From the NCBI GenBank assembly GCA_047967505.1, contig CM106538.1: a stretch of 64,000 bases of DNA. One strand, 5' to 3'. Below the pieces are notes generated by a model. It had not been told where the DNA came from and did not search any database. It saw nothing but the letters and a program-made list of their open reading frames with translations. Below are positions 2,391-54,400 of this stretch, piece after piece. Numbering within the stretch: position 1 is the stretch's first letter; each line of letters opens with the position of its first letter. The stretch is from Dipteris shenzhenensis (lineage: Eukaryota). Position numbers and translations under genes: made by a program.

Positions 2391-5300
2391 GATAAAATCA
2401 CTACAAGTCATGCGCTACTATGTGATGAAGTTAACATTGATTCAAAATGGACCATCAAGATTAAAGATATCGCAAGAAGTGAGTCCAACGAGGAATGTGT
2501 TGAAATGCTTGGGATTGATAACAATAAGAAACCTATCGTTTATATTGTTATGGAAGAGAAGTTCTCTTTGAAAGCTGTTACTCCACCCGCTGTAGCGGAA
2601 TAATTAAAATAAATCAAAGAGGAAGGGAAGGTTAGTTACTATTTATAAGTATTTTCTAATTTTCTTTGTTTATGTAATTTCTTTGGAATACTATGAGAGA
2701 TTCAATTTTGTTTTGTGTGTCCAAGATCTTATTTATCACTTGACAAATCAAATTGTGGAGGTTGATGAAATAATCGAGGAGATGGAGGTATCAACTTCCA
2801 ATAGTGATTCTGACGAGCATATAGAGGAGGGTTATGAAGAAGATACCATAACATCACCAATCAAACCAAGAGGTTCTTCAAAGTCAAAAGGAAAGGAATC
2901 TTCTCGTGTTGAAGCTGAAAAATTTGGCTCTAATACACAAGGATTAAGAACTCCCACGGGTTCACATGGATTGAGAGCACCTTCTCTTTTAGGCCATCAT
3001 GGATTGAGTGCACCCCCAAGTGGGCATGGTTTGAGCGCCCCCCCAAGTAGGCATGGTTTGAGCACACCGCTCCCAAAAAAATGACCTCTATTGGCTGCAA
3101 GTGCATTTCCTCTTGAGTCTTATGAGGATGTTGTCGAGGAGACTCCATCTATTGCACAAGGGAAAAAATAGAGTAAACCGGGATCAGAGGCTCCAAGGAG
3201 AGTATAGCCATTGGATATCATTGAAATCCCAACCAATGGTGAGCTACAAGTACCAGGAGTTAACATTGGAGATGGCACCTCAGATACACAACAAAATAGA
3301 GTCTGAGCAAAGGTACAACGAGATAACCTTGTGGATCGATAGACTTTCTTCTTGCACATTGATCATGTTATCAGACCTCCTATTGATCCTAGGACTGGCC
3401 TTCGGCCATTTGAGGTGCGAAAAATACATCCTTTTCATATTGAGAATTTGAAGTCACGAATGAAGGACAATCTGCATGCACAAGTTGTGAACTACATTGT
3501 GCTTGTGGATCCAAAAGATTGTCCAGACAAGACATCTATTGATTGTCGGAAAGCAAATGATTATAACTACTTTGTTCTTGGAGTCCCATTCAGCAGAGGC
3601 AAAAAGGTAGTTGAATATTGAGTTTCCGCGCAACTCTCATTACAAGACATGTAATTGTACAGTTTATGCTGGTTTGACTGATTCGAAGGCAAACTTTCTA
3701 GCTTTTGATCACAATAATGACAATGAGTATAGAAAGTCCATGTCTTGGATAGAACAGGTTCATTTCTATCACAATGAGTTCATTATGAAACTCAATGAGG
3801 ATCGTTCTTTGATCACTCCAAAGTTTCGCTTGTCTTTGTTGAATGAGACTCGGATTTCTACAACAATTAAAGATCCGTCAAGGCCAAGTGGCAGCTTCAG
3901 ATCATGGGACGGGATGTTTCAAATTGCATTTCATAGTGGAGAAGTTTGGGTTTTGATAAATGCAATTTTTTCCAAGTGGGAGAATTTTGAAATCAAAGGG
4001 CAGAAAAAACTCATACCTAAAGGAGTCGAGAAAGAAACCTAGACGTTGAAGGCATTACTTGGAGAAGTTCGAGCCACAGCATGGAAGAGCATGCAGGGAA
4101 TTAAAGATGAGATTCTAATTAAGTCTGTGCTTGGCAGAGTGGTGTCTAGGGATCTCTCTTTGGATGAAATGGGCAATGAATTTGATGAGTAATTAAACTT
4201 CTCTCTTTTGCATCATCTCTCTTTGATTTTACATTAATCTCTTTACAATAATGTTTCAATAGACTTTGTTTCAACTGTAAAAGTGAGAAGAATTTTACAT
4301 GTGTTTTCAATGCAAGCATAAAATATACATGAGAATGCAAGAAGCAATGATCTGGCAATTGAACATGCCGGATTGGAATGCTGTTCGGGAGGAGTATCCA
4401 GAGAGTAGAAGGATGGAGAGCTTGGCTCCATATTTCAATGTATTCAAAAGCATGGTATGTCAAATTTGGTATACATATTCTAATGGAATTTTTTCTTTTG
4501 AATTGTAGATTTGAATGTTTAAAATATTGAATTGTTATTTTGACAATAACCTTCAGAAAAGAGGTAAGAAGGGATCTGAGAGTAGTATGATGCCTGCAAG
4601 CTTTAAGCAATTGATTGACTGGGCTGCAAAAGAAAAAGAGCGTCGAACTCGACAACAATCTCTCACTCTTAGTGATGACATGTTAGAGTTTGACAAGGGG
4701 GAAAACCATCCACCAAACTTTTATCGTGTGCTCAACGGAGATTGCAATGAATTGTCGAAGATAGTTCCAAAGTATGAGTACACGTCAGTCATTGTAGACA
4801 TACCATACGGATTTAATATTCTCGGATCCACCTTTGATGAGGTCCCTTACAAAGCAAAGGAACTAATGAGTCTTCTTGACCAGTTCATGTCAATTACGTC
4901 GGCAACGCTTTGGTGTGTCATAACTTTTCATTCAGACTTGCAGTCTGGGGCAGTGATGAGTGTCATCAATGATAAATGTGCTGGACGTGACCACCTTTAT
5001 TGGTGAGTGCAGCAATAAAATGCAAAGATTTTTTGGGGTCAATTATTATTATTATAATTGTATTTTCTTTTGATAAATTTAAAACTTATTTTTATTGCAT
5101 GTCATAGGATGAAACCCAATGTGAGACAAATGAAAGGACATTGATTCACATCTGCTATAGAAAACATTTTAGTTGGGTATTGGTCTGTGGATGGAAAAAA
5201 ATATATTGGTCACATCAATTTTTCCTCATCTACTCCATTTACCCCTGATCATTTCATTATTCCAGATGTGACGAAGAAGCTCATGCATGTGACCATGGAT

Positions 5301-5768
5301 AAGAATGGGGAGATAGTAATTCCTTATCAAAAACCACAACTCCTAATTAATCAGCTCATAGATCTATTTTCAAATGAGCATGAGTGGGTGCTCAATCTAT
5401 TTGCTAGTTCAGGCACAGTCACAACATGTGCCTTAAAAAAGGGTCGAAATGTAATTGCAGTTGAAAAAGATCCTATTCAATGTGATTACATAAAGAAGAG
5501 AGTGATTGCTATTCATCACTTGCCTGATGAGCATAAGGAGCTTGGTTTGAAAGGTGGGAAGTTCGATGCAGATTTAGTGGTAGCCTCGTCACGGGAACCC
5601 CAACCTCCTGAGATATTGAAACCCGTTTTTACGGAGGCAGGCGAGCTAGCTGATACATGGGAGAAGGAGGTTGTGAAAGAGAAAGTGATTGAGAAACCCA
5701 TACAAGAAACCCAGACTAGGGAGGGTGATGAAGATGAGGTAGATGACACATATGAGAGAATTGAATAG
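2391..5768 (+). pseudogene. Intron-containing ParB/Srx-like domain + beta-class N6-adenine/N4-cytosine DNA methyltransferase fusion, inactivated
   Basis: Reassembled exons ~2391-2630, 2761-4188, 4316-4454, 4557-5002, 5108-5768; introns start GT and end AG except 4189-4315 (ends CAA). Motifs: VLNGDC, VIVDIPY (4797-4808), LYW|MKPN, ENILVG, PYQKPQLLINQLIDLFS, WVLNLFASSGTVTTCALKKGRNVIAVEKD; ParB-like FVLG(G)SHSAEA across a frameshift at ~3583. Ten in-frame stops; true start not located. Confidence 0.85.
2938..3075 (+). repeat. ~27-bp coding tandem repeat (HGLSAPPSG-like, 5 copies) in the low-complexity N-terminal part of the methyltransferase gene
   Basis: QGLRTPTGS HGLRAPSLLGH HGLSAPPSG HGLSAPPSR HGLSTPLP in ORF 2683..3084. 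Confidence 0.85.
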
Positions 5769-6085
5769 ACTCTAGTTATGGATTTGTATTGCTAGTTTTT
5801 TGTATTTGAATGGTTTCAATAGACAAGTGTTCTTAAGACATATTAGACTCCTTATGCTTTGAATGTTTTGAACATTTAGTTGTTCCCATTAATTTGTTGT
5901 TAGGGATGGTTATGAAGATAATGTAGATGACACATATGGGAGAATTGAGTAGACTCCAATTATGGAATTATATTGACAATTTTGTGATTTTGAATTGTTT
6001 CAATAGACAAGTGTTCTTGAGACATTTGAGAATCCATATGCGTTGAATGTTTTGAAGGAGGCATTTACTTTTTCCCATTAATTTG
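5717..6085 (+). repeat. Diverged tandem duplication (~184 bp x2) spanning the methyltransferase stop codon and 3' UTR
   Basis: 5717-5900 vs 5901-6085 share gtagatgacacatatg.gagaattga.tagactc, ttcaatagacaagtgttctt, cccattaatttg. Confidence 0.85.
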
Positions 6086-8766: not shown

Positions 8767-9726
8767 CGCTCTAGGTTTCAGCAAGGCCTCACGGTTTCAT
8801 CTTGGTAGGTTCTCAAGTTGGCTGCAGGTCCTAATACTGCCCACTCGGCATGTGGTGTCGAAGTTCGCCAATGCTGTAGACAGCAGCGTGGAGGCACTAG
8901 ATTTTGCAGAGTAATCGATATGGTCTCCATGCAGAACACGTCCCCATCGAGCCGAACTTGAGTCTGAACGTCCGGCGCCAACCCATCCATCCCCTTGAAT
9001 GAGCGGGAATTGAGCTTAGTCCCCGTCAACAGGTTGGAAACTTCTCCATGGGGAGATTGGAATGCGCAAAATGTATCGAACTTCGCTTCATGGGGCCTGC
9101 TTTAGTATGTTTGTTAGCGCTGATTTTGCGTTGCAGAGCTGGGTGCGCCGGGTTTGCATCGCCAAACGCATAAATTATGCTGAGAGCGAGAGAGTGTTGA
9201 TGAGAGTGGAGGATCGGTACCAGGAACTCGGATGCAAAAGCTTTTTGCTTGGTATGTTACGGTGCGATTTTCAGTTCAAGTCGTGTGTCATTTTCTTTCT
9301 TCGATAGAAATTATTTTCGCGTGCGAAACAAGTCTGCAATGCCGCCATACATACGTACATAGGCATCAAGATCCTTTTCTTGATTTTGTGAGTGGGGTGA
9401 GGGACCTCCCACCCTTTGTTATTGGCTCCTAGCACGGATTGCCAAAAACAACTAAGATAAAAGGAGCGTTAAAGAGGTCCGTGCCTTTACAATGTCAGCA
9501 GCTCCCAATAAAGAGGCTGAAAAAAGGCAAGATATGCTTATTTGTCAAGCTCATAGAAAAAGTTTATACAGGTAACACTTGGGGGAGTGCCAACCTACTT
9601 TTTGGCCGGCCCTCAAGATGCAATTTTGGGAAAGCAGAAATTAGGCATTTCTTGAATTTTTTGGAAGTGCATTTTTCCTATTGGCTCTTCTTCATTGGAC
9701 TTCAATGTAGACTTTAAAGTGGTTGA

Positions 9727-9730
<4 letters not shown>

Positions 9731-9773
<43 letters not shown>

Positions 9774-9857
9774 CCCTTCTTTATCTCCTCAAGTCTTCTT
9801 ATGGAGGATCTCGACCTTTTCTCCCTTACGCAAGATCTCCACCTTTTCTCCCACACC

Positions 9858-9903
<46 letters not shown>
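9731..9903. repeat. Two (CT)n microsatellites
   Basis: 9731-9769 and 9859-9903. Confidence 0.95.
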
Positions 9904-9907
<4 letters not shown>

Positions 9908-10940
9908 CCCCTTTATCTCCTCTAGTCTTCCTCCACACCATTTTCAGTGGATTCCTTTTTGCTTACTTCTTTTATCTTGGGCAGGCCTTATGAATGATTG
10001 AATATCATTCACCTTGTTTGCAAGAGGGGTAGGGCTTAGTGATTGTTTGAGAAAAATCACGATTTTTTCTCATTTTTGCATGTCTTGGTTTTTGTGTGCT
10101 CGGGGTTGGTACACCTGTTTCCATCCTTTTTTAGCGGAGAGAATGTCTCTTGGTTGTTTGCGTGGAATTCCCTCCCCTCCTCCTTCAGCGGAGAGAATGT
10201 CTCTCGCCTGTTTCCGTGGTACAACTCTTGGGCAGACAACGTCTCCCATGTTAGTGTTCAAGTTTGTGAGGTTTGTTGGTTTTTAGTTGAGCTCGCAGCA
10301 TTTGTCGCTTGAAGATCATTGGGTTTGTGTTAATGTTGTAGCACATTATTTCTGGCCAATCTAATTTTGCTTGCTCCCTCAATCTCTTGTAGTCGTTAGA
10401 TCCTTGCATACTATCTAGAATTCACATTACAAAAGGAAAATTTTGACGTACCATGATACATACGCTTTGTGTGGTGAGTATCGTCATTCGTGGGCTACTT
10501 GCCATAGTCTTGCCATCAATGTCCATTGTGCCCATTCCTGCCTCATTGATAGGCTAATGCTCGAGTTTTGTCTGTTTTTTACCTTTGGCAATTGCACCAC
10601 CCCCAGTTTGTGTTGTGACCAGATCTTTTCCTCCCAATTGAAAACCATTAACAAATATTGGAATCTTAAACACATGTTTTGCGAAGTGCGCCTTTATTTC
10701 CATCTCTTGTCATAATTAGAACTATTATAAGATAGTATGTCGACTTCCCAACTGGAATCGAAAGAAGTGTACTACTAGAGTGTAGGAGTAAAGTGCCGCT
10801 GCCCGTAGACCTATTGCCACTGTTGGTAAGAAAAATAATTTCTCAAAAATATGATATTATTGTACATACAACATCTGAGTAACAGATATGCGCAGAAGAG
10901 GAGATTGGAATTTGGGCAGTCGGGAATACTCATAAGAAAA

Positions 10941-14100: not shown

Positions 14101-14429
14101 TGTAGATTGATGGCTTCAAGGAACCCAGAAAGGAAGCCAATGATAGTAGCAAAGTGGCATTTTGAGTTCGGTTAATCCATTGAAATAGTAACTAGAAGTT
14201 TCCGGACTGCTGTCAAAAGTGTGTAGGTACCTATTTTTAGTAGCAAAGAACAGTGAAACCTTACAGAATTTGGACCTGCACTAAAATGGAAAGTTGTAGA
14301 CCTATCGATTGGCTACAATTTTTTAGTTGATAGTTTTTGTATTTGAGGTAACGTGCGGAAGTTATTGACTATGCAATACAACAAAAAGTTGCAGAAATCT
14401 GCTATTGGAAACCATGGCTCTATTGGAGA

Positions 14430-14810
14430 GAAGGATCAAAATAATTATGCCATTTGGAAGGTTCGGATGGAAAATTTCCTGGCTGGAAAAGGATATTGGG
14501 ATTTGGTTACAGGTGATGAGAAAGAGCCTAATTTGCCAGAAAGAAATGCTACTGTAGAACAAGTTAAGAATCATAAAGCTTGGCTGGAAAGAGCACGGAG
14601 GGTACTTCATTGGTTTTCAATATCTATTTCAGATGCCATGGTTATGCAAATTCTGAACTACAAGTGCCAGGAAAATTCAACTGAAGAAAAAGTTCAACAA
14701 TATGTGAAGACGAGGTAGAACAATACAAGAGTACGTGACTGAAATCAAAACCATAGCTGATCAATTAGCTTCTATTGATGCTTCTATGGATGATGATGAC
14801 ATGGTTGAAG
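14430..14810 (+). mobile_element. Ty1/copia gag remnant
   Basis: NNYAIWKVRMENFLAGKGYWDLVTGDEKEP; downstream frame YVTEIKTIADQLASIDASMDDDDMVE. Confidence 0.8.
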
Positions 14811-16039
14811 AGCAAGCAAACCAACAAGAAGCTATCTTTTCTACTTTGTAGTATCAGAGAGACATGAAGTGGTGCCAACCAAACTCAAAACAAAGAAGCA
14901 TCGTAGGTGGGAAATAGATATAATGAAGAAATTAGAGGCTTTGCATCTATCAAAGCAATATAAGTCTTGGAATATTGAGTTTTAAGGTTGCTAGTTTGGA
15001 GCCATTTATTCAAGGATTCGAGAGGTACATGAAGATAATGATCTAAAAATGACTCTTGGTCACCTACAGTAGTGCTTGAATGAATGAGAGTTGAGAGATT
15101 TAAATCAAAGAGCTTGAGTCAAGGAAGCATCACGAACAACAACTTTAGAGTTTAGGAAGACAAAGGACAAACCAATGCAATTGCTCTAAGGCAAGAGAAG
15201 GCTCCAAAATATTGAAGCTTAGTTGCAAAGATCAAGGCCGATAAAGGTTTGGTGTAATAGCTAGCCCACAATTAGTCCAAGAGAAGATAGATGTGATCAA
15301 TTTAAATGCAAAGGTTTATTAAGGCCCCAAACATCGTGGGTGAAGCCAAAGTGATAGTCATTGAAGGCCCAAGATGATGTGGCCAATGATAGTTTTTAGT
15401 GGAAGGGAACTATTTACACTCACAATGATGGTCTCTCTAAATAGTTCATGATGATGCCAAAGACTTTGCAATTGAGTTGAACCGATTCCTCAGATGGCAA
15501 TAATGATGTTATTCCCTATTTAGAATTTGAGGTTGGAAGGAGGGTTTGATTAAATTAGATGCATAGTGAGCAAACAAGGCTTGGATTTGATTAAATCAGT
15601 GATTCACATAGTGAGCATTGTGTTGAAAGTAGACAAGGAAACAATGTCATCCTTGGCAAGTAACATGTTTGCCCTTGTCTCCTAATTTACATACTAGGTT
15701 AACATGTTTGTAGGATCCCTACTATTGTGTACCTAGGTTATTGTTCCCTCAGCTTGTTGGCAAAGTGTGTTTATTTGTTAGGTCTACTTGTTCATGTCTT
15801 TAATGCTCATCTTGTGGTTGTCACATGGTTTGTGCCATTGTTTTGGTGTTTGGGTACTTTGTGAAATTCTGAATGGCATTTCTTATTTTGTATTTGTTCA
15901 TTATATGCCTTCTTTTTTGGCGTGTCTAGCTATTCTATCTATTTATGCTAGACAAGTGTCTTTTTGTTATGTCAACTATGATACTAATATTACAGCATAG
16001 GGCAAAAATGAACAGGGGAAAAAAAAACTTTACTTGATG

Positions 16040-16825
16040 TGTTTGAAGAGCATGAAGTCTCATTTTGATTTACTTGATGGTTTACCCCCTAACAGAGAAG
16101 TAGATCATAAAATAGATATATTTCTTGGATCTACCCTTGTTTATAAACTCCCTTAGTCAAATAGAGGAATGTGAGGTAGAAATACACCTGGTTGAATATC
16201 TTAGAAGACCTCAAATTTAACCAAGTAGCCCACTATGGTCTTCGCTAGTTTTGGTGGTAAAGAAAAAGGATGGTACTATGCGCTTATGCATAGATTACAA
16301 GCTTATTTTGGTGATATTTCTGCAAAGAGGATGACCAATAACTTTTGAAAGTAAGAAGTTAGAGTGCACTTTTATGGAATTACTCGACATAGGAGAAGAA
16401 ACTATATGCTATAGTCTATGTATTAAGAAATGGAGGCAGTGTTTCTATAGTGCTAGATTTGAGATCATATTTGGTCAAGAAGGTATCAAATTGATTTGCA
16501 ATCAACCTCAAAACTTCAATGAAGAAAAGTTAGATGGGCTAAATTGATGCAAGAATTTGATATTCAATTGACATTCTATATCACAAAGGCAAATTTGATA
16601 TATACCCAATTCAGCTAAATGCCAATGGTTAATGAATTGAATAATACTCAATTCCAAAGTCACTTTGTACAGTCCCTAAAAGGAAAATCTGAGCATGATC
16701 CTCACCTTAGGGAAAGCAATTATTGAGAGGGATTCCATTGGTCAAGGAGCTTCCATTGAGTAATGGTGCCATACTACAGGTTGGTCATAAAGGACTCAAG
16801 TGGAAAAAATCTAATATTGATGGCT
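16040..16825 (+). mobile_element. Highly degraded Ty3/gypsy RT-RNase H remnant
   Basis: LPPNREVDHKIDI, LVVKKKDGTMRLCIDY, PITFESKKL and ELYAIVY-like segments in broken frames. Confidence 0.75.
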
Positions 16826-18699
16826 TGGTTGAGAATCAGTCAGGTAGAATGCTTAAATGCCTACGGACTGACAATGGTGGAGAGTATCTCTCTCATGACT
16901 TTCAGCATTTTTGTGATACACGTGGGATTAAGAGGGAGCTCACATCCCCTCGTACTTGAGAGCAAAATCTAGTTGTAGAAAAGATGAACCGTACCATTCA
17001 AGAAAGGTTGCAATGCATGCTTTCCAATGCAAGTCTTTCTGGTGTTTTTTTGGGCTGAGGCAATGAAGACTGCAGTGCATGTGATCAATAGATCACCTAG
17101 TAAGAGTTTGGATAGTGGTATTCCTGAAGAGGCATGGAGTGGCAAGAAGCCCTCTTACTCTCATTTGCATATATTTAGGTGTGAGGCATATGCACATGTG
17201 CCAAAAGAGCTTCGAAAGAAGCTAGATCCTAAGTCTAGGAAATGCATCTTTCTGGGTTATGGTGAAAGTGGAGAGATGGGCTATCGTCTCTGGGATCCAG
17301 AAGCAAAGAAGATCATACGCAGCCTTGATGTAGTCTTCAATGAGAAGAAGATGCATAAGGCACCCATGAGGGATGTGGAAATGAGGAGAATCACTTTCCA
17401 GGATGTGAATCCACCTGCATATGTTGATAGACAGCAAGCTGTCCATGCACCAAATGTGCAAGAAATGGTACCACCAAGTACTCCCACAGGTATTCAATCA
17501 AGGGTAGATGATGGATCATCTATTGGTGGAAATGATGAGCCAAATGTGGCTGATATGCAGGTGGGATAGCAAGCTGAAATGCCCTTGAGAAGATCATCTA
17601 GAGTGTCTAGATCGCTTGATAGGTTTGTTCCAGGGGTAGACTATGTGATGCTTACTGATTGTGGGGAGCCTTCTTGCTACAGAGAGGCTATGATGCGCGA
17701 GGATCAATGCAAGTGGGAGTATGCTATGCAATCAGAAATGAGTTCACTTATGAAGAATAAGACTTGGGACTTGGTTTCTTTGCCACATGGAAAGAAAGCA
17801 TTGCCATGTAAATGGGTCTACAAAATGAAGGTCATAGGTGATGATGTGCCTAGGTACAAGGCCCGTTTGGTCGCTAAAGGGTTCAAGCAAGAGAAGGGTG
17901 TGGACTTTGATGAGATATTCTCTCCGGTTGTGAAGATGACCACACTTAGATGCATTCTTGGACTAGTGGCATCAGAGGATATGGAGCTTATGCAGATGGA
18001 TGTCAAGACAGCTTTCATGCATGATGGGGATTTGCATGAGGAAATTTACATGGTGCAACCGGAAGGCTTTGAAGAAAAGGGCAAAGAGCATTTAGTTTGC
18101 AAGCTGAAGAAGAGTCTCTATGGTCTTAAGCAAGCGCCTAGAGAATGGTATCAGAAAGGCTGAGTATGTTGCAGCCACAGAGGGATGCAAGGAGGCTATA
18201 TGGCTTGGTCGACTAGTGGGAGATTTGGGGATTCATACAGGTTTACCAACATTGCATAGTGATTCCATGAGTGCTATTCAGCTAGCACGGAATCCAGTCT
18301 TTCATGCAAAGACCAAACACATTGAGGTCAGGCACCATTTCATCAGGGAGGTACTTGAGGACAAGCGCATAGAGCTTGTCAAGGTTCATACAGATGATAA
18401 CCCTGCAGATATGTTGACGAAGAGTCTACCTAGTCAGCGGTTTGAGTATTGTCGTGTATTGATGGGCATTGGATAGTATGCTCACTGGTTGTTCTCCCTT
18501 AAAGGCACATTGTCCTTTAAGTGGGAGGTTGTGGGGGTTAAAGGTCACTGTGTCTTTACCCCGATTATGTACAATACTCAAACACATATATAAATGAATG
18601 AAAAAGAAGATTAGGGTGTTCTACACCCACCAAAACATGTGTGGCTCTCTATTTCTCTCTCTCCCTCTTCCGTTCTTGCTTCCGTTGAGAGCACTCTCA
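16826..18699 (+). mobile_element. Ty1/copia 3' half (integrase core, RT N-part, deletion, RNase H, PPT, 170-bp 3' LTR 18530-18699)
   Basis: LRTDNGGEY, KLDPKSRKCIFLGY, YKARLVAKGF, QMDVKTAF, LKKSLYGLKQAPR, HAKTKHIEVRHHFIRE, NPADMLTK; PPT aagtgggagg; LTR TG...CA followed by GTAGA. Confidence 0.92.
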
Positions 18700-34320: not shown

Positions 34321-35748
34321 CCTGATACATGTAAGGGATACAAAGTCCCACACTTGGCACCCCTGGCCAAAAGCATAGAGCCCTTCTAAATTTTCCAACT
34401 CTGAAAGCCAAAAGTGGTGTGAAAACTAGCATCATCTAGCTGACCCACTGAAATAAGACTCTTGGTCAACTTAGGCACATGTCTCACATGTTTCAAAATA
34501 AATGCAGACCCATTTGCAAAAGAAAACTTTATGTCACCTACTCCCACTATGTCACATGCATAGTCATTTCCAAGATGCACACAACCTGTCTTTCCACTGT
34601 CATAAGTGGAGAACCATTCCCTATGGGGAGTAATATGGAATGAAGCACCAGAATCCAAAATCCAATCCTGGGAATATGCATCATCTGAAGTGGTAAGCAA
34701 CTCTGTAGATAAACTAGACATGAAGAGAAAATCATTGTCACTATCATGTGTGACTGCATTGATCTCCTCGATCTTCACTTTTCCTTTGTCCTCCCTTGGA
34801 CTCTCTTCCTTTTGATTTGCACCCCAATTTGCATTATTTTTCTTATCCTTTTGCTCTCTTTTCAGCTTGTAGCAATCCTTTTTCACATGGCCCTTCTTGC
34901 CACAGTGGTAACACTCAATGTTCCATGCCTTGGATTTGCTACGAGACTTCCCTCTTTCTTGGGACTTCCCCCTGAACTATGATCTGCCCCTTTGCACATT
35001 TAAGGCTGCATCCTGCTTGTTGCCGTCCATAGACTTCCGTCTAATCTCCTTGGCCAACAAACTACCCACAACATCATCAAATTTTAGTACTCCACCAGGT
35101 GCAGAGTTATTGACAGCTGTACGGAAGGTATCCCATGAGGATGGCAACGAACATAAGAGAACTATTGCCTTAGTCTCCGCATCAAAATTCATCTTTTGAG
35201 CCTAAAGCTGGCTGAAAATAATATTGAATTCATTCAAGTGAGAAGCAATGGAGACCCCCTCCTTCATCTGCAGCTTAAACAACCTCTTCATGAGGTAAAC
35301 TTTATTAGAGGCAATTTCCTTTTCATAAGTGGCACACAGTTTCTTCCACAAATCTTCCATAGTATGCTCATTTACTACTGTGAAATAAACTGACTCTAGA
35401 AGATGAAGTCTAATAGTAGATTTTGCTAACGCATCCAACTCATTCCAATCATCCTCAGACATATTTGCAGGCTTAGCTTCAATTCCTGCCAAGGGTTTAA
35501 TCTGCTTCTTTTGAATAAGCACATCCCTTATTTGTTCTTTCCACAAAGAAAAGTTTGTCCCATCAAACTTTTTAATGCTAAAAAACTCCTTTCAGACATG
35601 GAAGAGGATGCCATGATGCAGAGAAACAGAGAGCCACACAAGTTTTGGTGGGTGCAAAACACCCTAATCTTCTTTTTCATTCATTTATATATGTGTTTGA
35701 ATATTGTACATAACCGGGGTAAAGGCACAGTGACCTTTAACCCCCACA
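34321..35748 (-). mobile_element. Ty1/copia 5' half (truncated 5' LTR, gag, CCHC knuckle, protease)
   Basis: LTR 35748-~35620 matches LTR at 18530; gag MASSSMSEGVFSIKKFDGTNFSLWKEQIRDV; CYHCGKKGHVKKDC; WILDSGASFH; HVPKLTKSLISVGQL. Confidence 0.92.
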
Positions 35749-36393: not shown

Positions 36394-39300
36394 CTACCCA
36401 ATATCATCAATTGTCGTGTATAAAAGGGAGTGGTCTATTGTTACAAGATTCCAAATATGGTCAATTGTGGAACCATGAATACAAGTTGGTTCTTCTATTA
36501 ATTGTTTGAAATTGTTTTGTACCATGAATTTGTGTAGTTGTGTTGAATTTGTAGAATTTTTGCAATTAATATTGAAGTCCCCTAAGATTGTAGTTGGAAT
36601 TTGTTGTTGTACTTTGTTTATCATTGTTTGCAATATATTTATAAGTGTTGATTATGGTGAGGAAGGGTGTTTGTAAACATTAATTATTGCAAATGTTGAA
36701 TTTTGATATGTTTTGAATATTGTTAACAAACACTCTGACCTTTTGTGTGTAATGTATTCTTGCATTTGCAATTGAACATGAGTTTTACAACATGTTGCAA
36801 TACCGATGCCATTGTTATTTTGCAAGATTGTGAAATTTTTCAAGAAGAGTGATTGATTATTTTGGCAATGAAGTTCTTGGAGGCATAATATTGTGGCACT
36901 CATGAGGCTTTTGTCAACAACAATGTCTTTGTAGTGTGCAGAGGATGCTCTAACATTTAAAGATTACAATGTCCTTTGTGGGCTCTTATTTAAGGAGTGG
37001 TTAATTTGTTTTGCAATCCATTATCAATGTGATCTCAATCTTTCTATTTTTTTGATAACATTTTTGTCGATTTTGATGTACTTAGGTTCGAGTGGCTTGA
37101 CAAGGTAAAGGTTGTCTGGGTTGTGAACAGTGATAGTGCTATGTATGTAAGGCCATGTGCTTTGATGAAAGAAGGATCAAATGCATGATAGTCCATAGAT
37201 AGACCTTGCGAACGATGTATTGTTCTTGCAGCTATTGGTTGTAGTGGAAATTGTCGTCTAGTGAGACAATGTTCAAAAGGTTTTTCCCAATTTGAAATTC
37301 TCTTGTTATTTGGTGTATTGTTTTCCATTGTTGTGGAATGTCGTTAGTGTAGAGGTGCTGTTGTTTAAGCGAGTTTTCCTTCCAATGATATTATTAGTAA
37401 ATTGAACCCAAACAATATGAGGCTCTATTGCGATGAACGATTGTTTGAATATTCCATCGGCACCATTGACTAGACCATCACCAATGTCCAAGTTTCCTGA
37501 ACATATTTCCATTATTATTCCAGGCTTTAGGTACAATGTTTGGTGCAAACCAAATGTGTTCTTAGGAGATGTAGGAATGTTTATTATTTTGCTACATGTC
37601 TTGTGTCTTTTGTCAATTGCTTTCAAGATGTGTGGATTTTCCTTAAGCAATGAGAAGACTTCCTCATTGTGTGCATCCTTGCTTGCATTTTTGTAGAACA
37701 AGTAAGGTATGTTTTCCTTTTTTATTGGTTGACAAAAGTATTTATTATTAAGATATGATATGTCTTGAAGAGTGTGTTCTCCAATTCTAATGCGGTTTAG
37801 AATTTCTATGTATGTATTGTCCTCTTGGTGCATAGGCTTTATTAATTTATAAATAAGACATTATTTGTCCAAAATGATCACATTGATCTTGTGTTTGTTG
37901 CTTGGTCCATGAATATCCATGAGTCTTTTGTTGGACTTGCTTGACACAAATTTCCACAAAGAATAATGTCTATTCCTCCAAAGGGCTCCAAGTGATTGTG
38001 CTTGATCTCATGGAGATGCATGTCAGCAGCCACAAGTGTACTGTGTCCAATCAAAGAAACCTCATCAAAAACTACTAGTTCAAGTTCTTTGTACAGTTGA
38101 GATAGTTCTTGTAATTTCTCGGCTGAGAGGCTTGTGTAATGAGATGCCATTAGTGGTAAATAAAGTGTAGCATGTATGGTTGTGCTGCCAGTGTTGAAAG
38201 CCACCTTGCCTATGTATGCAAGCAATAACACTTTTGGGAGGTCTACGTCTAAGGATTGTTTGTGTGTAGTGTCGTAAAAGAGCTTGTACTATGAGTAGTA
38301 GTGTAAATGTTTTCCCTGTTCTTGCATTCCATGTTAGAAAGACATGATGTCGTTTATTTGAAGCACATCTTTTCTTTAGCATTATGTCTTCGAGAAGCAA
38401 ATGTTGTTCACTATTTAGTAATCTCAAGGAATAGTAATATTGTGTGTTAGGCATCATCAAATATTTGGGCAAAGACTTGTCAAAATGTTGAGAGGTTTTT
38501 GTATTTTTTGGCATTTCTAATCCAATGTCGTATTTGTCGGCATTCTTTAATGTTTGGGTTGATATTGAAGACGATGTTGTTGATGTATTATTTGATTTTG
38601 TGGGGAATTTTGGAATGAGTTTGATAAACTTTTCTTCATTGGGTTGTATGATGTGTTTGTTGAGAAAGAACATGTCATGCCATGTTTGATAATTTTCATC
38701 AAGAGTAAGTACATTATTGTGATATGGAAGAAATAGAATACATTTCTCTCGGTAGTAATCTTCTAGGTCTTTTTTAAGGTTGTAGTTGTTGAAGCGGATG
38801 ATCTTAGGTTTTTTCCTCTTTTTTGTATTTGAAGCTGTAATTGTGTATTGGTGTAAAAGTTGCTAGGCATATGTCGAGAAGAGTATTTGTGCGTTTCAAA
38901 TACTTCATTATAATGTCATCAAAGAAGATGTTGATATTTTCAAGGTGCATTTTCTCCAATTGCTCTCGACATTTTAGTAGGTAAGTGCATTTCTTGAGAG
39001 GATTTGTGTTAATATACTGAAATTGCCTAGTGGATGATGATAATGGTAAAGAAAGTGCTAATAAGTAAATAGCTTGTTGAGAGCTAATATGTTGAGTATT
39101 CAAGATGGCATTGCCACTCTATGAATGTGTTCATTTGCTGGAGTATTGGAAGCAATACTTGCAATGAGTGCTAGTTTCACAGCTTCTGTTGTTTCTTTTC
39201 TATTTTAGTTATGTACAATGTGCAATATGCTGCTGCTCGATGTGGGTTTAGAATGAATTGAATATTGGTGTTTGCTCCCCATAAGTTTGACATCGTTGGG

Positions 39301-40570
39301 TTGAAGTTATTTGTGTAAATGTCTTTTGGTTCTCTTTTTAAGAATAAAGTGGGTTGAGAAATAGAAGAACGAATTGAATGAATGTAATCATCTTTGGACA
39401 TAGTCGATGCCTTTAGAAAGCTTGTGTAGTCCAACGTTAACGTATGATCTTCTAGTAGTTGACTTTTAATTTTTCTCATTGTTTTTTTGAAGTTTTTGTT
39501 TTCGATATGATCTTCCAAAGGTTCCAAGATTTGTGTTTGTTGCATAGGAAAACGTGGAAATCCAAATCTACATTTATCTTTTCTTTTGAAGCAAGTTTTA
39601 TGATGTTTATGTGTTTGCATTTCATGTATTCTCATGGGGGAATTTGGAGATATTTGTTGAAATGTATTTATCAACAAAATCTTCAATATCATGGTTGGAA
39701 TCAATTCCAAACTTGGGGAATTTTGGACCCACAAGAGGCCATGATCATGTTGACTCCCTCTATTTTGAAATTTTGTTACAAAGAAGAAGTCATTTATTTT
39801 GCCTAGAAATGTCGCATCTTTTTTTAATAAATTCTTAAGGGCTTGGAATTTGTGTACATAGTATGGTGCAGTTGTTATTGGATCAGATCTTATCAAATTA
39901 CGAATTTCTATGTTTGAGTTTGAATTTGTGGATTCTTTATAGGGATTTAGTTTTCTCAAACATTATAGAAGTGGTTCCCAAAGTTTTTCTGCAGCACATA
40001 GTGTTATAAAGAAACATGGTGGTCCTAATTGTCTCAACATTGCAAATAGGTTTCTTTTGAGTTATTGCTTGTAATCAATGGAAGTTCTTAGATGTGTGAA
40101 GTCACAAAATCCAATGTTTGATTGTAGAAGTTTTTCAATATTAGTATCCAAAAGAGCATCTTTGACTTGCAATGTTCTACCTTTTGTTTGTGCTTTACGC
40201 ATACGAACCCAAGATGAAGAAAGAATTTGGCAGACCAATATTTTCATTGTTTTAAAAAAGAGGTTTTCCATTGACATTGCAAATCGACAGTCCACATTTA
40301 ATAATTCCCAAGCTACAATAATTTGGTATGAATTGCGCGCTAGAATTGCATGGTTTCTTTTTTGCCTATAAAAAATTTTGGGGTATGCTAATTCTTCACA
40401 ATATTTGTCTTTAAAAATACTTAATGGTGAAAAGCCTTCAAAAGGTGCTACAACAATAGTTGTTCTTCAAAGTCAACAACTTGTTGGCTTGCATATATGC
40501 CATGAACAAGCGTATCTGTTGCAATATCATCTTCTTCTATTTGGATATGCTCTTTAATATCTTGTTGCAA
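36394..40570 (-). mobile_element. Helentron/Helitron2-type element, degenerate: Rep (HUH), PIF1 helicase, AP endonuclease-like domain
   Basis: KFQNRGSQHDHGLLW, QTHKHHKTC...CRFGFP, NARTGKT, VFDEVSLI, RTIHRSQGLS, then ILCLQELH, ILGDFN, STIDHIW. Confidence 0.9.
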
Positions 40571-45563: not shown

Positions 45564-48540
45564 ATACTTTGTTATTAGATCAATCAAGTAATATTTATAC
45601 AATAACTCCACTAATTTTTTTGGAAAATAAACAAACATACAAAACATGGAATGGCAAAGATGTAAATAAACTAGAAGAAATATTGTTGCAAAATCATTAT
45701 CTGTCAGCAAAAGAACTAGATACATTGTTTTTCCAAACATTTGAACAAACATCTTATTCGATGCAAGGAGTTCTAAACAAAATATACAAAATGCAAAAAA
45801 ATGTTCTCCACCCAAATGCAAATTTAGATCCGTCAAACTTACTCAAAAAAGATGAACCATCTCAAAAACCAAATTCTACAAGAAAAAGAAAAAAAAAACT
45901 ACAAATACATATCAAGAACAATATTGGAACAAAATATCGAATACTCCATCATTTGCATGTATTTGTTGTGGATCACTTAAATTTTTGTCCAATTTGAAAC
46001 AACTCAAAGGCTAAAAAGCAATATTTTTACAAAGCAATGGTCTTACATTATCAACAATAAAATCTCAAAATAACTACTTATGTTCTATTTGTAACAAAGA
46101 TGTCAACAAAAACAAGATGCCATTACTAAATAAGACAAGCTTACAAATAGCTACTAAAATACCTTCCACTCGCAAACTAAACGAAGTAGAAGCACGTTTA
46201 GTTTCCATTTGAATACCATTTGCACAAATACATGAGCTTTCCTATGAGGGACAATATGGTCTACATGGAAGTGTTGTGAATGTGCTTGCAGATGTGGATA
46301 GAGCCCAAAAGTATTCCCAAGGTTTATAGGGGACAATGACACGGTAGTTGTGGCAATAAAACGGAAGTTATCATACAAACATAGCACATGAGTGGTATAG
46401 TACGTCCAACATTGACTATGCTTGCATTAACTGAACTATTAAACACGCCACTCTATAAAGAAAATGATATAGATAAAATGGGAATATCCCAATTCCCATA
46501 AGAAGTAATGGAGTCCGGTGAACCTTTATAAGATTTTTGTCAAAACCACCTCATGTGACATATCCTTGGAAAGATCTCAACAAGTAGAGTCTAAAGATGC
46601 AATCTGTAACAAATTTAGAGTTTGCATGTTTGATATATAGCAAGAATAAGATTAAAGTTTCATTCCCACAATACAAAATTCTTTCCACTTTATCTAATAT
46701 TGAATTTGAAAGTAAATCCTCTTTGGGAAAGTCATATTAAAAACATTCAACAACAAGAAGAACCATCATCAATGAAAATGAAGAGAAGTTTATCAAACTC
46801 ATTCCAAAGTTTCCCACAAACTCAAGTAATGCATCAACAACATTATCTTCAACATCAACACACACATTCAAAAACATCAGCACATACAACATTGGAATAG
46901 AAATGCCCAAAAATGTAAAAGCAAATCAACATTTAGACAAGTCTTTGCCAAAGTACTCCATGTTACCTGACAACAAATATTACTACAATTTAAGATTACT
47001 AAACAATGAACAACATTTACTTCTCCACAACATCATGCTTAAAAAAAGATGTCATTTGCAAAAGCGGAATCATCTTTTTTTGACAGGAAATGCAGGTACA
47101 GGTAAAATATTCACACTACTATCATAGTACAAGATCTTCTACGCCACTACTCAGACAACCAATCAATAAACATTGAGCTTCCAAAAGTGTTGTTGCTTGC
47201 CTATACAGGCAAAGCAGCTTTCAATATTGGAGGCACAACCATCCATGTTGCCCTTCATTTACCACTAATGGCATCTCACTACACAAGCCTCTCCACCAAA
47301 AAATTGCAAGAACTATCTCAACTATACAAGAACTAGAACTTGTAGTGTTCGATGAGGTTTCATTGATTGGGTACAGCTTACTTATGGCTGCAGATATGCG
47401 CCTCCGCAAAATTCAACACAACCACCTACAACCTTTTGGAGGAGTTGATGTTATTTTTTGTGGAGATTTGTGCCAAGCAAGTCTAACAAAAGACTCATGG
47501 ATATTCATGGATCAATCATCAAACACAAGATCGATGTCATCATTTTGGACAGAAAATGTCCTTCCTATGAATTAACAGAGCCAATGCGGCAAAAAGACAA
47601 TACATACATAGACATACTAAATCGCATTAGAATTGGGGAACACACTCTTCAAGACATCTCATATCTCAACAATAGATACTTTCGTCAACCATTAAAAATA
47701 GAAGAAATTCCCTACTTATTCTACACAAATACTTCAAAAGATGCACACAATGAAGAAATCTTCTCATTGCTTAAGGAAAGTCCACACATCTTCAAAGCAA
47801 TTGACAAAAGACATAAAACATGTAGCAAAACAATAAAAATTCCTACATCTCCAAAGAACACATTTGGATTGCACCACATATTGAACCTAAAACCAGGAAT
47901 GATTTTGTTCTAGAAATTTGGACATTGGTGACAAACCCACACAAATGACACTGCAATCTTTGAATACGAGAACATTATCTTTGCACCATGAAGACATTGT
48001 TGCCGACAAAAGCCTAATGAGCACCACAATCTTGTGCCTCCAAGAACTTCATTGCCAAAATAATGATTTGCTCTCCCTACAAAATTTCACAACTTTGCAA
48101 AACAACAATGGAATTGGAATAGCAACATGTTATAAAATTAATGTACAATTACAAATGCAAGAATATATTACAAAAACAAGGTGAGCGTTTGTTGACATTA
48201 TTCAAAACATATGAAGGTTCAAGTTTTGCAATCATTAATGTTTATAAACACCCTTCCTCACCACAATCAACACTCATTAATATCTTGGAAAATATGATTT
48301 TGAAATTAAAACAAAAATTTCCAACTACAATCCTAGGAGACTTCAATATTCATTGTGACAACTCTTCAATTTCATCACTTCTTCATAAATTCATGCGAAA
48401 ATACAATTTCATACATTAATAAAAGAACCAACAACTATTCATGGTTCCACAATTGACCACATATGGAAAAACACATACCATAACAACACAACAAATGGAA
48501 CAAACTTCATATACTGGTCAAACCACTCCCTTCTATATAC
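45564..48540 (+). mobile_element. Second Helentron-type copy, internally deleted (N-terminal region, helicase, AP endonuclease; Rep absent)
   Basis: LTGNAGTGK, FDEVSLIG, FCGDLCQ, ILCLQELH, ILGDFN, TIDHIW; clearly homologous to the 36.4-38.7 kb region in opposite orientation. Confidence 0.88.
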
Positions 48541-51459: not shown

Positions 51460-54400
51460 TAAGGACACAGTTCCACCATGTTGATGGACAAGGAGGGTTT
51501 CAAGTTTTGTTGAACCTCTTGTATCCCAAGTTTCATTTTGGAAGGCAGAATCAATTGATATAGACCAATTGCTATGGGCCAGTCACCAAGAACCCACCGT
51601 TCCTTCTCTGCACCAACTTCCTCTTCAAAATCGTCTTCAGACATGTCTGTTTGCCTATGGCGTGACTGCCTGATTATCATGTCGATTGCCAAGCATGTAT
51701 GCAGCTCGACTTCACCATTGGACCAATCCTTGATAGCTTTGGCTGATCTCAAATAGATGAGATCATCCCTTGTCATGTCAAGCACAACAAAGTTAGAGAG
51801 AAAGATGACCTCACCAATCTGCATGGGAACTCCCTTGACAACTCCTAGGGGCACAACCTCCATTGGTCAACCGTTTTGACTTGAAAGTGTGTTGAACTGA
51901 TGAGACTCAAACCCAATTGCACCATAGTACTCTTGGGCATGATATTAATTGCTTTTCCTGTAAGAAAACAATACAACGTCTGTGCTCAACAGATAACAGG
52001 ATCTCGTATGCAAGAGAGAAAAGCAGATAGTATGGAGAATCAAAAATTTGATTACTGTAAAACTGATACAATAGATGGCGCTGCCTCCCAATCGTGCGCT
52101 CCTGCGAGAGAAGCTTTGATGGCGTGCTGGAAACAGTAGAGGACGGAGCCTGGATGCTAAGGAATCAGGGTTGCTGTAGCTAGTGATGATAATGGGCTTC
52201 ACGGACTTGCTCTTATATAGCCACCAATCGTAGTCGGTTAGACCCAATTGGGTGACCGACCCAGTCCGCCCAAAACGGTCGACTGGGGGTCAGTCTCGAA
52301 ATAGGCCACCGACCACACGATAGAACCGTGGTGCAAAATAAAGCAACTAACCTGCGGTCTTCATTCGGCCATCCGGGATCATTTGGGGCTCCAAACGGGC
52401 CTCGCAACCCGAGAGTGGGCTGCCTCGGGAAATGCTCCGTCTACCCTTAGTGCGGTCAGTCATGGGATGCCTTCCCGCACTTGCATGTAGCCTAGTTGGC
52501 AATGTGCCAACTCTCTGAAGCCGTCCAGCCATCAGGCCACACATGGCCCCCATCTGCTGTCCAAGCCTTCTCCTCATATGAGGGGCTTACAAGTAGAGTT
52601 AGCTGGTTCCCACGTAGTTACACGAGAGTGGAGCATTGATATCTAACATCCCTCCTCAATGTCCACCCGCAAGTGAACTTACTTTTTCGGCACAATGCCA
52701 AGTCGATGAAGATGCCTCTCCAACAAGTCTCTTCCAAGAGCCTTCGTGAAGATTTCCGCAGTAACATGTCACTGATCTCCTGCTATCCACGTCTCTTGTC
52801 CAATCCGAGTCACAGAATCCGGTCAAGATATTGCCCTTGGTATAGGTGATGCCATAATCAAGTGTGCCTTTGATGTATTTCAGCACCCGCATCCTTACCC
52901 TCCAATGGTTCTCCTGGGGCTTATTGGAAAACTTGCTTAGTACACTAGTCGCAAAAGTGATGTCCGGCCGCGTGTTGCACAAGTAAATCAAACTGCCCAT
53001 AAGCCTTCTGTACTTCGCTTCGTCCACCAGTGGTGATGAATCCTCGTTTGAGAGCTTCACATCAACCTCCATAGGGGTGCCAACTGTCTTGCACTCAGTC
53101 ATGCCAAATGCCTTCAGTATCTCTCCCGCATACTTCAACTGTGAGATGAAGATCTGTTTTGGCTCTTGCCAAACTTCAATTCCCAAACAGAAATGCATCA
53201 GTCCGAGGTCTGTCATTTCAAACTCTCTTCCTAGCAAATGCTTTACCTGCGAGATCTTCTCTTCATGGTTCCCTGTTATGACAAGGTCGTCCACGTAAAG
53301 GACCACGATCATACACCCGCCTCCTTCTCTGTAGATATACAAATTTGCATCAGATGGGCTCCTCCTGAATCCGTTTTGCAGAAAGTAGGCATCAATCCGC
53401 TGGTACCACGCTCGTGGGACCTGTTTCAACCCGTAGAGTGTCTTCTTCAATTTACAGACTTTACCTTATGAACCGGGAATCACAAAACCTGGTGGTTGTT
53501 CCACGTATACCTCCTCCTTGAGATCTCTATTCAGAAAGGCGGATTTTACATCCATCTGAAACACGGGCCAACTTTCTTGTGCTGCTATAGCCAAAACACT
53601 GCGAATTGTGGCTAGTCTAGCTGTGGGAGCAAAAGTATCCTAATAATCAAAACCATGTACCTGTGCGAATCCTTTTGCCACGAGCCGAGCCTTATACTTA
53701 TCCAACGTGCCGTCGGACTTGTACTTAGTCTTGTACACCCACTTGGTGCCGATTACCTTGCGTTTTAGTGATCGATCCACAAGGTCCCAAGTGTTGTTCT
53801 TCATTATGGAGCCATACTCCGACTGCATAGCCTCCATCCACCTTTCATCACCCTGTGCCTCTTCAAGACACTTGGGTTCTTCAGCACGGATCACCTCTGT
53901 CATCAAAGCATAGTTGACCAAGTGTTCCTGCGCCCTTCTTTGCTCCTCTAATCTCTTGGACCGGCGGTGTTCGGATGGTTCCTCCTCAATGATTGAAGAT
54001 TCTCTGCCGTCCAAAAGCTGCTTTACCCACTTCGAGAATGGTCGTTGCCATTGTGGTTCTGCAGGCTCTTCTTCCTCTTCTTTATCTTGAATCCTCCCAA
54101 GCACCGTTGGGGGAGTTCGGTTTGCTGTTGGTGGTTGTACTGGATGGATATCCTGGTCCTGGTTGTCTGGGAAGGAAGCATCCTTCTCCACTTGATGCGG
54201 CTGTTCTGAGAAGACCACATCGCGACTTACTATTACCTTCTTAGTAACAGGGTTATAGAGACGGTAACCCTTCGACTCTTCACTGTAGCCCAAGAAAATA
54301 CACTTCCGACTCTTCGGTTCCCATTTGGTCCTGTTAGCATCAGAGACATGCACAAAACAGTCACATCCAAAAACTCTGAAATGTGCAGCTGAAGGTTTCT

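Follow-up and report, generated by a model that had tools for sequence, protein, structure and literature searches.

The region 2782–5768 (+ strand) of a 64,000-nt stretch of DNA from Dipteris shenzhenensis (contig CM106538.1, assembly GCA_047967505.1; hereafter, the window) is probably a decayed copy of a multi-copy streptophyte gene, coding for a ParB-like module joined to a DNA methylase in the architecture known from phage fusions, from which a mechanism can be proposed for the intact members of the family. The window copy itself is a non-functional pseudogene, because it contains five disabling stops (3304 TGA, 3340 TAG, 3608 TAG, 4040 TAG, and 5142 TGA), one frameshift (3583/3584), and an out-of-phase acceptor in the first intron. 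The parts of this copy are as follows.

2782–3249 (+), probable N-terminal coding region of the same gene, frame 1 from the ATG at 2782
3250–3583 (+), N-terminal half of the ParB-like module, frame 1 (RPPIDP...FEVRK...IVLVDP...YFVLG), with stops at 3304 (TGA) and 3340 (TAG)
3583–3584 (+), frameshift within the GG-x-H-S motif (GGSHS in the family; G and then SHS in frame 2 in the window)
3584–4188 (+), second half of the ParB-like module, frame 2: the SHSAEA P-motif helix and a helix-turn-helix (HTH)/helical part to SLDEMGNEFD
4189–4316 (+), intron-like gap 1, with putative splice sites (donor GT at 4189–4190; sole nearby AG at 4315–4316)
4317–4454 (+), linker exon HKIYMRMQEAM...YPESRRMESLAPYFNVFKSM, counterpart of a confidently predicted helical linker in the model of a fused homologue
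4455–4556 (+), intron-like gap 2, GTATGT...CAG, phase 0
4557–5002 (+), end of the linker and N-terminal half of the methylase, matched by tblastn to P0046 from Adiantum and to the fused homologues
5003–5107 (+), intron-like gap 3, GTGAGT...TAG, phase 2, colinear with 'HLIWHKPNI' of P0048
5108–5768 (+), C-terminal half of the methylase, with a TGA at 5142, a PYQKP motif, a degraded S-adenosylmethionine (SAM) motif I, and the natural stop at 5766
5717–6056 (+), tandem duplication with a period of 184 nt and 85 % identity, comprising the final methylase codons and the 3′ flank

The ParB-like module belongs to a large eukaryotic family

Positions 3250–4188 (+) encode approximately 310 residues that are colinear with a large eukaryotic protein family, at 42–51 % identity, and are interrupted by one frameshift and four in-frame stops, of which 3608 and 4040 (both TAG) fall in the second half. 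The initial annotation, made by eye from the sequence, had started the module at 3340 and had joined a series of peptides through a frameshift at around 3583; all of these peptides were found, with the switch between frames 1 and 2 at 3583/3584, and homology begins ca. 90 nt further upstream, at 3250 (tblastn). The frame 1 translation of 3343–3621 reads TFFLHIDHVIRPP...FEVRKIHPFHIENLKSRM...IVLVDP...YFVLG, and a reading starting at 3343 opens with TFFLHIDHVIRPPIDP, followed by FEVRKIHPFHIENLKSRM. From 3584, frame 2 gives SHSAEAKR, a stop, and then ...CTVYAGLTDSKANFLAFDHN...MSWIEQ..., ending in SLDEMGNEFDE and the stop at 4190. The frameshift lies in the family-invariant GG of the sequence ...VIGGSHSAEAR... 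(alignment A1): where the members of the family have GG, the window has one Gly codon and a stray G.

Homologues P0003 and P0005 matched the window by tblastn with E values of 2e-64 and 2e-62, with both frames joined; residues 234–345 of P0003 aligned to 3250–3582 with 43 % identity, and in alignment A1 the window pieces showed 51 % and 45 % identity to this protein. A first protein search, using as query the frame 2 piece with an X placed at its two TAG stops (P0001), retrieved seven proteins of 446–582 aa (E 1e-36 to 1e-40), and when 1.84 billion representatives were searched with a profile, 644 clusters reached E ≤ 1e-3, 305 reached E ≤ 1e-10, and 66 reached E ≤ 1e-30. As judged from these alignments, the homology of 3250–4188 to the family is far above chance. 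A second protein search did not identify near-length relatives of the window piece at E ≤ 1e-5, and no close paralogue was found. Among 20 members for which the species was looked up, eight were from Chara braunii, four from Riccia sorocarpa, three from Adiantum nelumboides, and two from Ginkgo biloba.

Homologues P0002–P0008, from ENA, share an N-terminal domain of around 150 residues (EW.L.Y...VDY.D.DS...VETSKG...TLRPFI) that is found neither in the window nor in the plant members, and P0139 has a SAM domain in its place (4e-8); the ParB-like module thus seems to combine with different partners.

The sequence upstream of the homologous part, 2782–3249, is of low complexity, acidic and Ser-rich, with HGLSAPPS repeats and a 27-nt tandem repeat at 2998–3068. 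It carries three further stops in the same frame (3082, 3169, and 3205) and matched neither a homologue, by tblastn, nor a Pfam family. We consider it a probable part of the gene, because it is in the same frame as the ParB-like part and because the N-termini are disordered in the models of P0008 and P0063, the latter a fused homologue.

The second half of the gene is a degraded methylase

The segment 5145–5765 matched the Pfam family N6_N4_Mtase (PF01555) with an E value of 2e-9 and 38.2 bits, the cut-off being 26.7, and its homologues reach 7.6e-18; CcrM-type models of NCBIfam also match this methylase (1.1e-7). The closest named protein is P0046 from the fern Adiantum nelumboides, with 49 % identity. 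Motif IV (DIPYG, 4797–4811) is situated upstream of motif I (FASSG, ca. 5400), which is the permutation of the beta class. The first Pro of the canonical motif IV, (D/N/S)PP(Y/F), is replaced both in the window (D-I-P-Y) and in its homologues (D-[A/I/F/V]-P-[Y/H]), and this departure from DPPY is one of the points against the overall interpretation. In the window, SAM motif I reads LNLFASSGT (ca. 5394–5420) versus LDLFSGSGT in homologues such as P0048 from Ginkgo, and neither the SAM-binding FxGxG motif nor the open frame, with the TGA at 5142, is intact. At its 3′ end, the tandem duplication at 5717–6056 repeats the C-terminal ...DDTYERIE-stop as a diverged second copy.

Among solved sequences, the closest are the adenine enzymes M.RsrI (2.3e-6), M.MboIIA, and CcrM, whereas N4-cytosine enzymes appear only at 0.35–0.91. 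Ser in motif IV has been linked to N4-cytosine methylation (PMC4738411). Given the D at the start of motif IV in the family, with adenine methylases as its closest solved relatives, the predicted product of the intact members is more likely N6-methyladenine (6mA) than N4-methylcytosine (4mC).

One fused protein or two genes

An N6_N4_Mtase domain was detected by Pfam C-terminal to the ParB-like part in seven of the 26 long members of the family, so that the combination of both domains anticipated in eukaryotic proteomes does exist; P0183 and P0185 also align to the methylase exons of the window by tblastn, raising to nine of 26 the members with both parts. Proteins containing the two parts occur in Ginkgo, Adiantum, Riccia, and Chara, as well as in one further contig. 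The order in the window is the same as in P0182 from Ginkgo (ParB end, linker, and methylase), with residues 35–130 of this protein corresponding to 3914–4183, residues 133–275 to 4317–4835, and residues 262–381 to 5382–5750, and with three intron-like gaps intervening. Gaps 2 and 3 have clean, in-phase GT...AG ends. In the model of the fused member P0063, the linker forms helices at residues 422–511, mostly with a predicted local distance difference test (pLDDT) score above 90.

The module had originally been described as in frame with the methylase exons. Its colinearity with the fused homologues holds, but the donor at 4189–4190 and the AG at 4315–4316 fail to restore the frame: the in-phase acceptor position of gap 1 reads AA, and the only AG shifts the frame. 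Several observations weigh against a single fused gene. All seven ENA homologues (P0002–P0008) end exactly at the position of the window stop at 4190 and have no methylase, so stand-alone forms of the ParB-like protein may exist, and the fused plant proteins come from automatic annotation, which could have merged neighboring genes.

These observations could be accounted for by two neighboring genes, of which the first would encode a ParB-like protein on its own, terminated by the TAA at 4190, and the second, downstream, a separate methylase, with the fusions being annotation artefacts. In its favor, gap 1 cannot be spliced in frame in the present sequence, the stop at 4190 aligns with the C-terminus of the seven methylase-free ENA proteins (…SLDEMVVELSK), and P0046 from Adiantum is a methylase-only model. 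Nevertheless, we consider it unlikely, because both parts are found together in nine of the 26 long members, seven by Pfam and two by tblastn, from four named species and a further contig; because the linker HKIYMRMQEAM...YPESRRMESLAPYF directly follows ...EF(xx) in P0182 from Ginkgo and P0185 from Adiantum; and because this linker is a confidently predicted helical domain in the fused model. Additionally, a donor-like GA|GTAATT overlaps the stop at 4190 (GAG TAA if unspliced), and an unspliced donor GA|GTAA would give 'E-stop' and AA|GTAA 'K-stop', so the C-terminus shared by the ENA proteins could be an exon end read through by a program calling open reading frames (ORFs). These results favor a single gene coding for a fused protein.

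Predicted fold of the ParB-like module

The fold was examined on homologues 40–50 % identical to the window, since the window copy is itself broken. The AlphaFold model of P0008, built from an alignment of 126 sequences, had a mean pLDDT of 81.4, with values above 90 across most of residues 140–446. A Foldseek search of the PDB with this model gave 12 matches at E ≤ 1e-3, all of them to ParB or Noc; the best was 6sdk_A (1.6e-5, prob 1.00), and for 7nfu the target TM was 0.50–0.53. The matches that came next were to KorB, sulfiredoxin (Srx), PadC, and SbnI. The alignments with ParB, Noc, and KorB extended over around 290 columns and included the HTH domain as well as the N domain, and that to Srx extended over ca. 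111 columns (rmsd, root-mean-square deviation, 3.1–4.0; target TM 0.55–0.65). Among the viral models in BFVD there were 14 matches at E ≤ 1e-3, headed by phage proteins of the ParB/Spo0J type. In the model of the fused member P0063 the module had a pLDDT above 90, all three parts being confident.

Sequence searches alone do not reveal this fold, which counts against the ParB reading. Pfam and NCBIfam contained no family for the window pieces of the ParB part or for the first homologues, the Pfam model ParB_N (PF02195) matched neither these pieces nor the first seven homologues, and it was absent from the 25 of 66 Pfam families listed for 126 members. Profile searches of the PDB sequences with alignments A1 and A3 returned 0 matches, and the ParB identity rests on predicted structures of homologues that are 40–50 % identical to the window. 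In the same 126 members, HTH_ParB was found in two (best 3.1e-4) and DUF6551, weakly, in eight (best 0.019). The presence of an HTH domain directly after the N domain is indicated by the Foldseek alignments of ca. 290 columns and by the two HTH_ParB matches. Overall, the models support a ParB/Srx fold followed by an HTH/helical part of ParB type, so the reading of the module as ParB/Srx, initially proposed from sequence patterns, was borne out at the level of fold in intact homologues and not by any Pfam ParB model. Within 1–14 kb of the window, neither a ParA partner ORF nor a parS-type array of inverted repeats was found.

The P-motif arginine is missing from the whole family

Both ParB, with its GxxR motif, and Srx have an invariant Arg in the P-motif (Box II), and the motif of Srx is GGCH. 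In 65–66 aligned sequences of the family, the two Gly residues of the GGxH motif are retained in 57 and 56 cases and the His in 58. Immediately after this His, the alignment has S in 40, G in six, L in five, T in five, C in five, and Q in one of 66 sequences, the window having Ser; the six commonest residues at this position do not include Arg. The initial annotation was thus right in noting Ser in place of the conserved Arg, and the comparison shows that it is a trait of the family and not a lesion of the window copy. At the position of the catalytic Cys of Srx the family is variable (N 19, S 18, G 9, T 7, and C 5 of 65).

Replacement of the P-motif Arg by Ala is reported to abolish nucleotide binding in the ParB-fold proteins tested (survey preprint, bioRxiv 10.1101/2025.10.10.680097). 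Sliding of a clamp driven by cytidine triphosphate (CTP) appears unlikely in this family, because its sequences lack this Arg; for the same reason, the early suggestion that ParB might spread the methylase along DNA is doubtful.

The ParB fold also serves as an enzyme in Srx, SerK, and SbnI, as documented in the same preprint, and the module could accordingly be a nuclease or an enzyme that uses nucleotides, in the manner of ParB-like nucleases, Srx, or SerK, instead of targeting DNA. The structural matches in the PDB include Srx and SbnI, and the His of GGxH is retained in 58 of 65 sequences. This possibility seems quite improbable to us, as the best matches are to the DNA clamps ParB, Noc, and KorB over around 290 columns that include the HTH part missing in Srx, HTH_ParB matches two of the 126 members, and neither the Cys nor the Arg of Srx is conserved at its position. 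We therefore retain a DNA-binding, ParB-like module as the preferred reading.

Relationship with phage fusions

That fusions of ParB and methyltransferase domains are common in phages, as stated in the initial annotation, agrees with published accounts, in which they belong to ParB-terminase loci (Iyer et al., 2015, PMC4738411; bioRxiv 10.1101/2025.10.10.680097), and with protein Javan93_0016 from a Streptococcus phage. This protein (418 aa) contains ParB_N at residues 8–95 (4.2e-5) and N6_N4_Mtase at residues 195–384, and its gene is situated ca. 1.8 kb upstream of that for the small subunit of terminase. The N-to-C order of the eukaryotic family is the same, a ParB fold followed by a beta-class N6_N4_Mtase, but its module, made up of a ParB N domain, an HTH, a helical region, and a helical linker of 100–150 aa, has about three times the length, and it has introns, lacks the P-motif Arg, and has no terminase neighbor.

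Sequence similarity to phage proteins is confined to the methylase. Using the fused protein P0063 as a tblastn query, 301 of 50,697 phage records were matched with 23–29 % identity (best E 3e-9), all of them through the methylase part, with coverage of the query below 80 % in every case. A comparison of family alignment A2 with Javan93_0016 by hhalign, which counts against the interpretation favored here, aligned just 33 columns at motif I of the methylase (prob 85.8), and the ParB halves did not align. At the structural level, the best match of the P0063 model in BFVD (E 5.3e-14) spanned 666 columns on a phage protein of 507 aa, and other long matches included phage proteins named 'ParB/Sulfiredoxin' and 'DNA methylase'; the alignments to phage proteins of 458–507 aa extended over 659–705 columns. 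From the length of these alignments, we infer that they would cover both domains. In 185,579 genomes of prokaryotic species, the ParB-like part (alignment A4) gave 26 pattern matches, none of which was confirmed as a relative. The shared architecture is consistent with the earlier idea that the two-domain module may have been acquired as a unit; similarity to phages is seen in sequence for the methylase half only, and for the ParB half by fold only.

Although both domains are typically prokaryotic or from phages, and the methylase half matches those 301 phage records, an origin of the gene in contamination of the assembly or in a very recent transfer from bacteria or phages is hardly credible, given the three GT...AG-type gaps where fused homologues run continuously, the flanking F-box gene, copia elements, and Helitron remnants, the restriction of the named relatives to streptophytes, and the lack of a confirmed relative in the prokaryotic genomes.

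Comparison with other eukaryotic and ParB-type systems

Among eukaryotic systems described so far, those closest in kind are accessory genes of algal DNA transposons that combine ParB-like and N4/N6 methylase domains, such as the gene for a protein of 1104 aa in the Ectocarpus transposon Sola1-1_Ec32 (PMC12477816). Both these genes and the family reported here are multi-copy and are proposed to bind and modify DNA; however, no transposase, terminal inverted repeats (TIRs), or target-site duplication (TSD) were found around the window copy, and its host is of the land-plant type. The protein of Sola1-1_Ec32 is likened here to our family by its description and not by sequence. In the red alga Bostrychia, accessory genes of Plavaka elements (PAGs) code for ParB plus a 2-oxoglutarate (2OG) oxygenase (PAG3) and for an N6-adenine methylase plus SET (PAG2), as described in bioRxiv 10.1101/2025.02.11.637652. 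They resemble our family in coupling a ParB-type DNA-binding domain to an enzyme that modifies DNA or chromatin, within a eukaryotic mobile element, and differ in that the partner of ParB is the oxygenase, with the methylase on another protein; a tandem array of inverted repeats as in Plavaka was not found beside the window gene.

Bdelloid rotifers likewise have a resident permuted N6_N4_Mtase of bacterial type, N4CMT, whose gene contains introns and which is joined to a targeting domain; this domain, however, is a C-terminal chromodomain and not an N-terminal ParB, and the gene is a single-copy host gene. The report on N4CMT states that the enzyme lacks eukaryotic homologues (PMC8885841).

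With respect to the canonical CTP-dependent clamps ParB, Noc, and KorB (6sdk, 7bnr, 7nfu, and 8qa8), which are the best structural matches and combine a nucleotide-binding fold with an HTH, the family lacks the GxxR Arg and a Pfam ParB_N match, has its module fused to an enzyme, and showed no ParA partner or parS array by the window gene. The core fold of Srx (3cyi, 1xw3, and 6ky4) superposes on the module, and the GG-x-H of the family resembles the GGCH of Srx, but the module differs in the variable Cys position, the missing Arg that follows, the added HTH/helical domain, and in that nothing links it to peroxiredoxin.

A feature search of the ESM Atlas with residues 265–555 of P0003 placed clusters of fungal DUF3723 proteins nearest (score 0.96; 187 of 256 features shared). 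A link to DUF3723, an accessory gene of Starship elements, was not confirmed, since the 25 of 66 Pfam families listed for the members do not include it; a preprint on Starships describes DUF3723 as SMC-like and not ParB-like.

State of the window copy and its possible link to a mobile element

Besides the stops and the frameshift, the window copy accumulates the out-of-phase acceptor of the first intron and the change in the SAM motif (FASSG versus FSGSG in homologues). The TGA and TAG stops at 3304, 3340, 3608, and 5142 are situated where the homologues mostly have Arg, Gln, or Lys; our impression from the alignments is that the pattern of stops agrees with C-to-T decay of a repeat that was methylated and silenced.

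Three results argue against linking this copy to a transposon. No transposase domain other than those of copia was found in ORFs of at least 75 aa across 1–22 kb; no convincing TIRs flank the gene; and a second copy was sought within the window and not found, the gene being present there only once. A TSD around the window copy was not found either. The missing transposase and TIRs would be compatible with a transposon origin, as this copy may be a fragment.

Genomic neighborhood

The 64-kb window is part of a eukaryotic genome of land-plant type. A Rfam scan of the whole window gave no matches. Its other features are listed below.

1098–1595 (−), F-box ORF (Pfam F-box 3.4e-6; F-box-like 1e-5)
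9717–9934, two long (TC)n microsatellite blocks of about 20 and 22 units, ca. 90 nt apart
14347–18473 (+), body of a copia-type long terminal repeat (LTR) retrotransposon with gag, integrase, SH3-like, and RVT_2 domains
34389–34976 (−), piece of a retroelement gag-pol with a zinc knuckle and a Pol beta-barrel domain (8.6e-29)
37881–39962 (−), Helitron remnant, identified by Pfam domain matches of Helitron/PIF1 type
47177–47572 (+), Helitron remnant of opposite orientation, identified by Pfam domain matches of Helitron/PIF1 type
52659–55890 (−), body of a copia-type LTR retrotransposon with gag, integrase, SH3-like, and RVT_2 domains
58760–60064 (+), open frame of 434 aa with a very proline-rich start and a weak DUF4283 match (5.8e-4)

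The F-box ORF, apparently exon 1 of an F-box gene of the host, is divergently oriented and lies ca. 1.2 kb upstream of the pseudogene. The (TC)n blocks, together with a flanking 27-nt unit, form a diverged direct repeat. The second copia body includes an open stretch of 540 aa (53643–55262), and the matches in the Helitron remnants were to Helitron_like_N (8.6e-7) and to pieces of a PIF1 helicase (5.8e-13 and 2e-9). The open frame at 58760–60064 lies where the GC content of the window is highest (0.57), with a strongly negative GC skew.

Proposed role of the intact proteins and significance

From the structure of the gene and of its homologues, the product of an intact member would be a single polypeptide in which a disordered N-terminus is followed by a ParB-like module, then by a helical linker, and finally by a beta-class N6_N4 amino-methyltransferase. 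The ParB-like module would bind DNA, possibly at sites of its own element, and would in this way place the tethered methylase on that DNA. Without the P-motif Arg, plain DNA binding or dimerization would be more likely than CTP-driven sliding of a clamp.

A much broader scenario, which we regard as speculative and rather unlikely as a whole, is that the members from Chara to Ginkgo form an unrecognized family of ParB-methylases that came from phages, is carried by mobile elements, and is still active in part, writing 6mA (or 4mC) on DNA selected by a ParB module without its nucleotide switch. In this scenario the methylase-free module would represent a pan-eukaryotic family of mobile elements, including the ENA/Logan proteins, one of them with a SAM domain, and possibly fungal DUF3723.

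Genes that combine ParB-like and methylase domains are already known in algal transposons; what is new is a land-plant member, and the distinctive trait is the ParB motif devoid of its switch throughout the family. In the literature searched, with subscription journals and bioRxiv supplements lying outside the search, there was no description of a family of ParB-like methylases in land plants. Land plants are credited with few adenine (N6A) DNA methylases (PMC4738411), and permuted N6_N4 methylases are treated as nearly absent from eukaryotes (PMC8885841).

The window locus itself contributes only a dead copy. If our interpretation is correct, however, plants would gain candidate enzymes for writing 6mA or 4mC, through a multi-copy family represented in Chara, in a liverwort and a fern, and in Ginkgo, and the idea of a transposon carrying its own DNA-binding epigenetic writer would be extended from algae to land plants. 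Likewise, the loss of the P-motif Arg from the whole family would offer a natural test of the ParB fold without its nucleotide switch.

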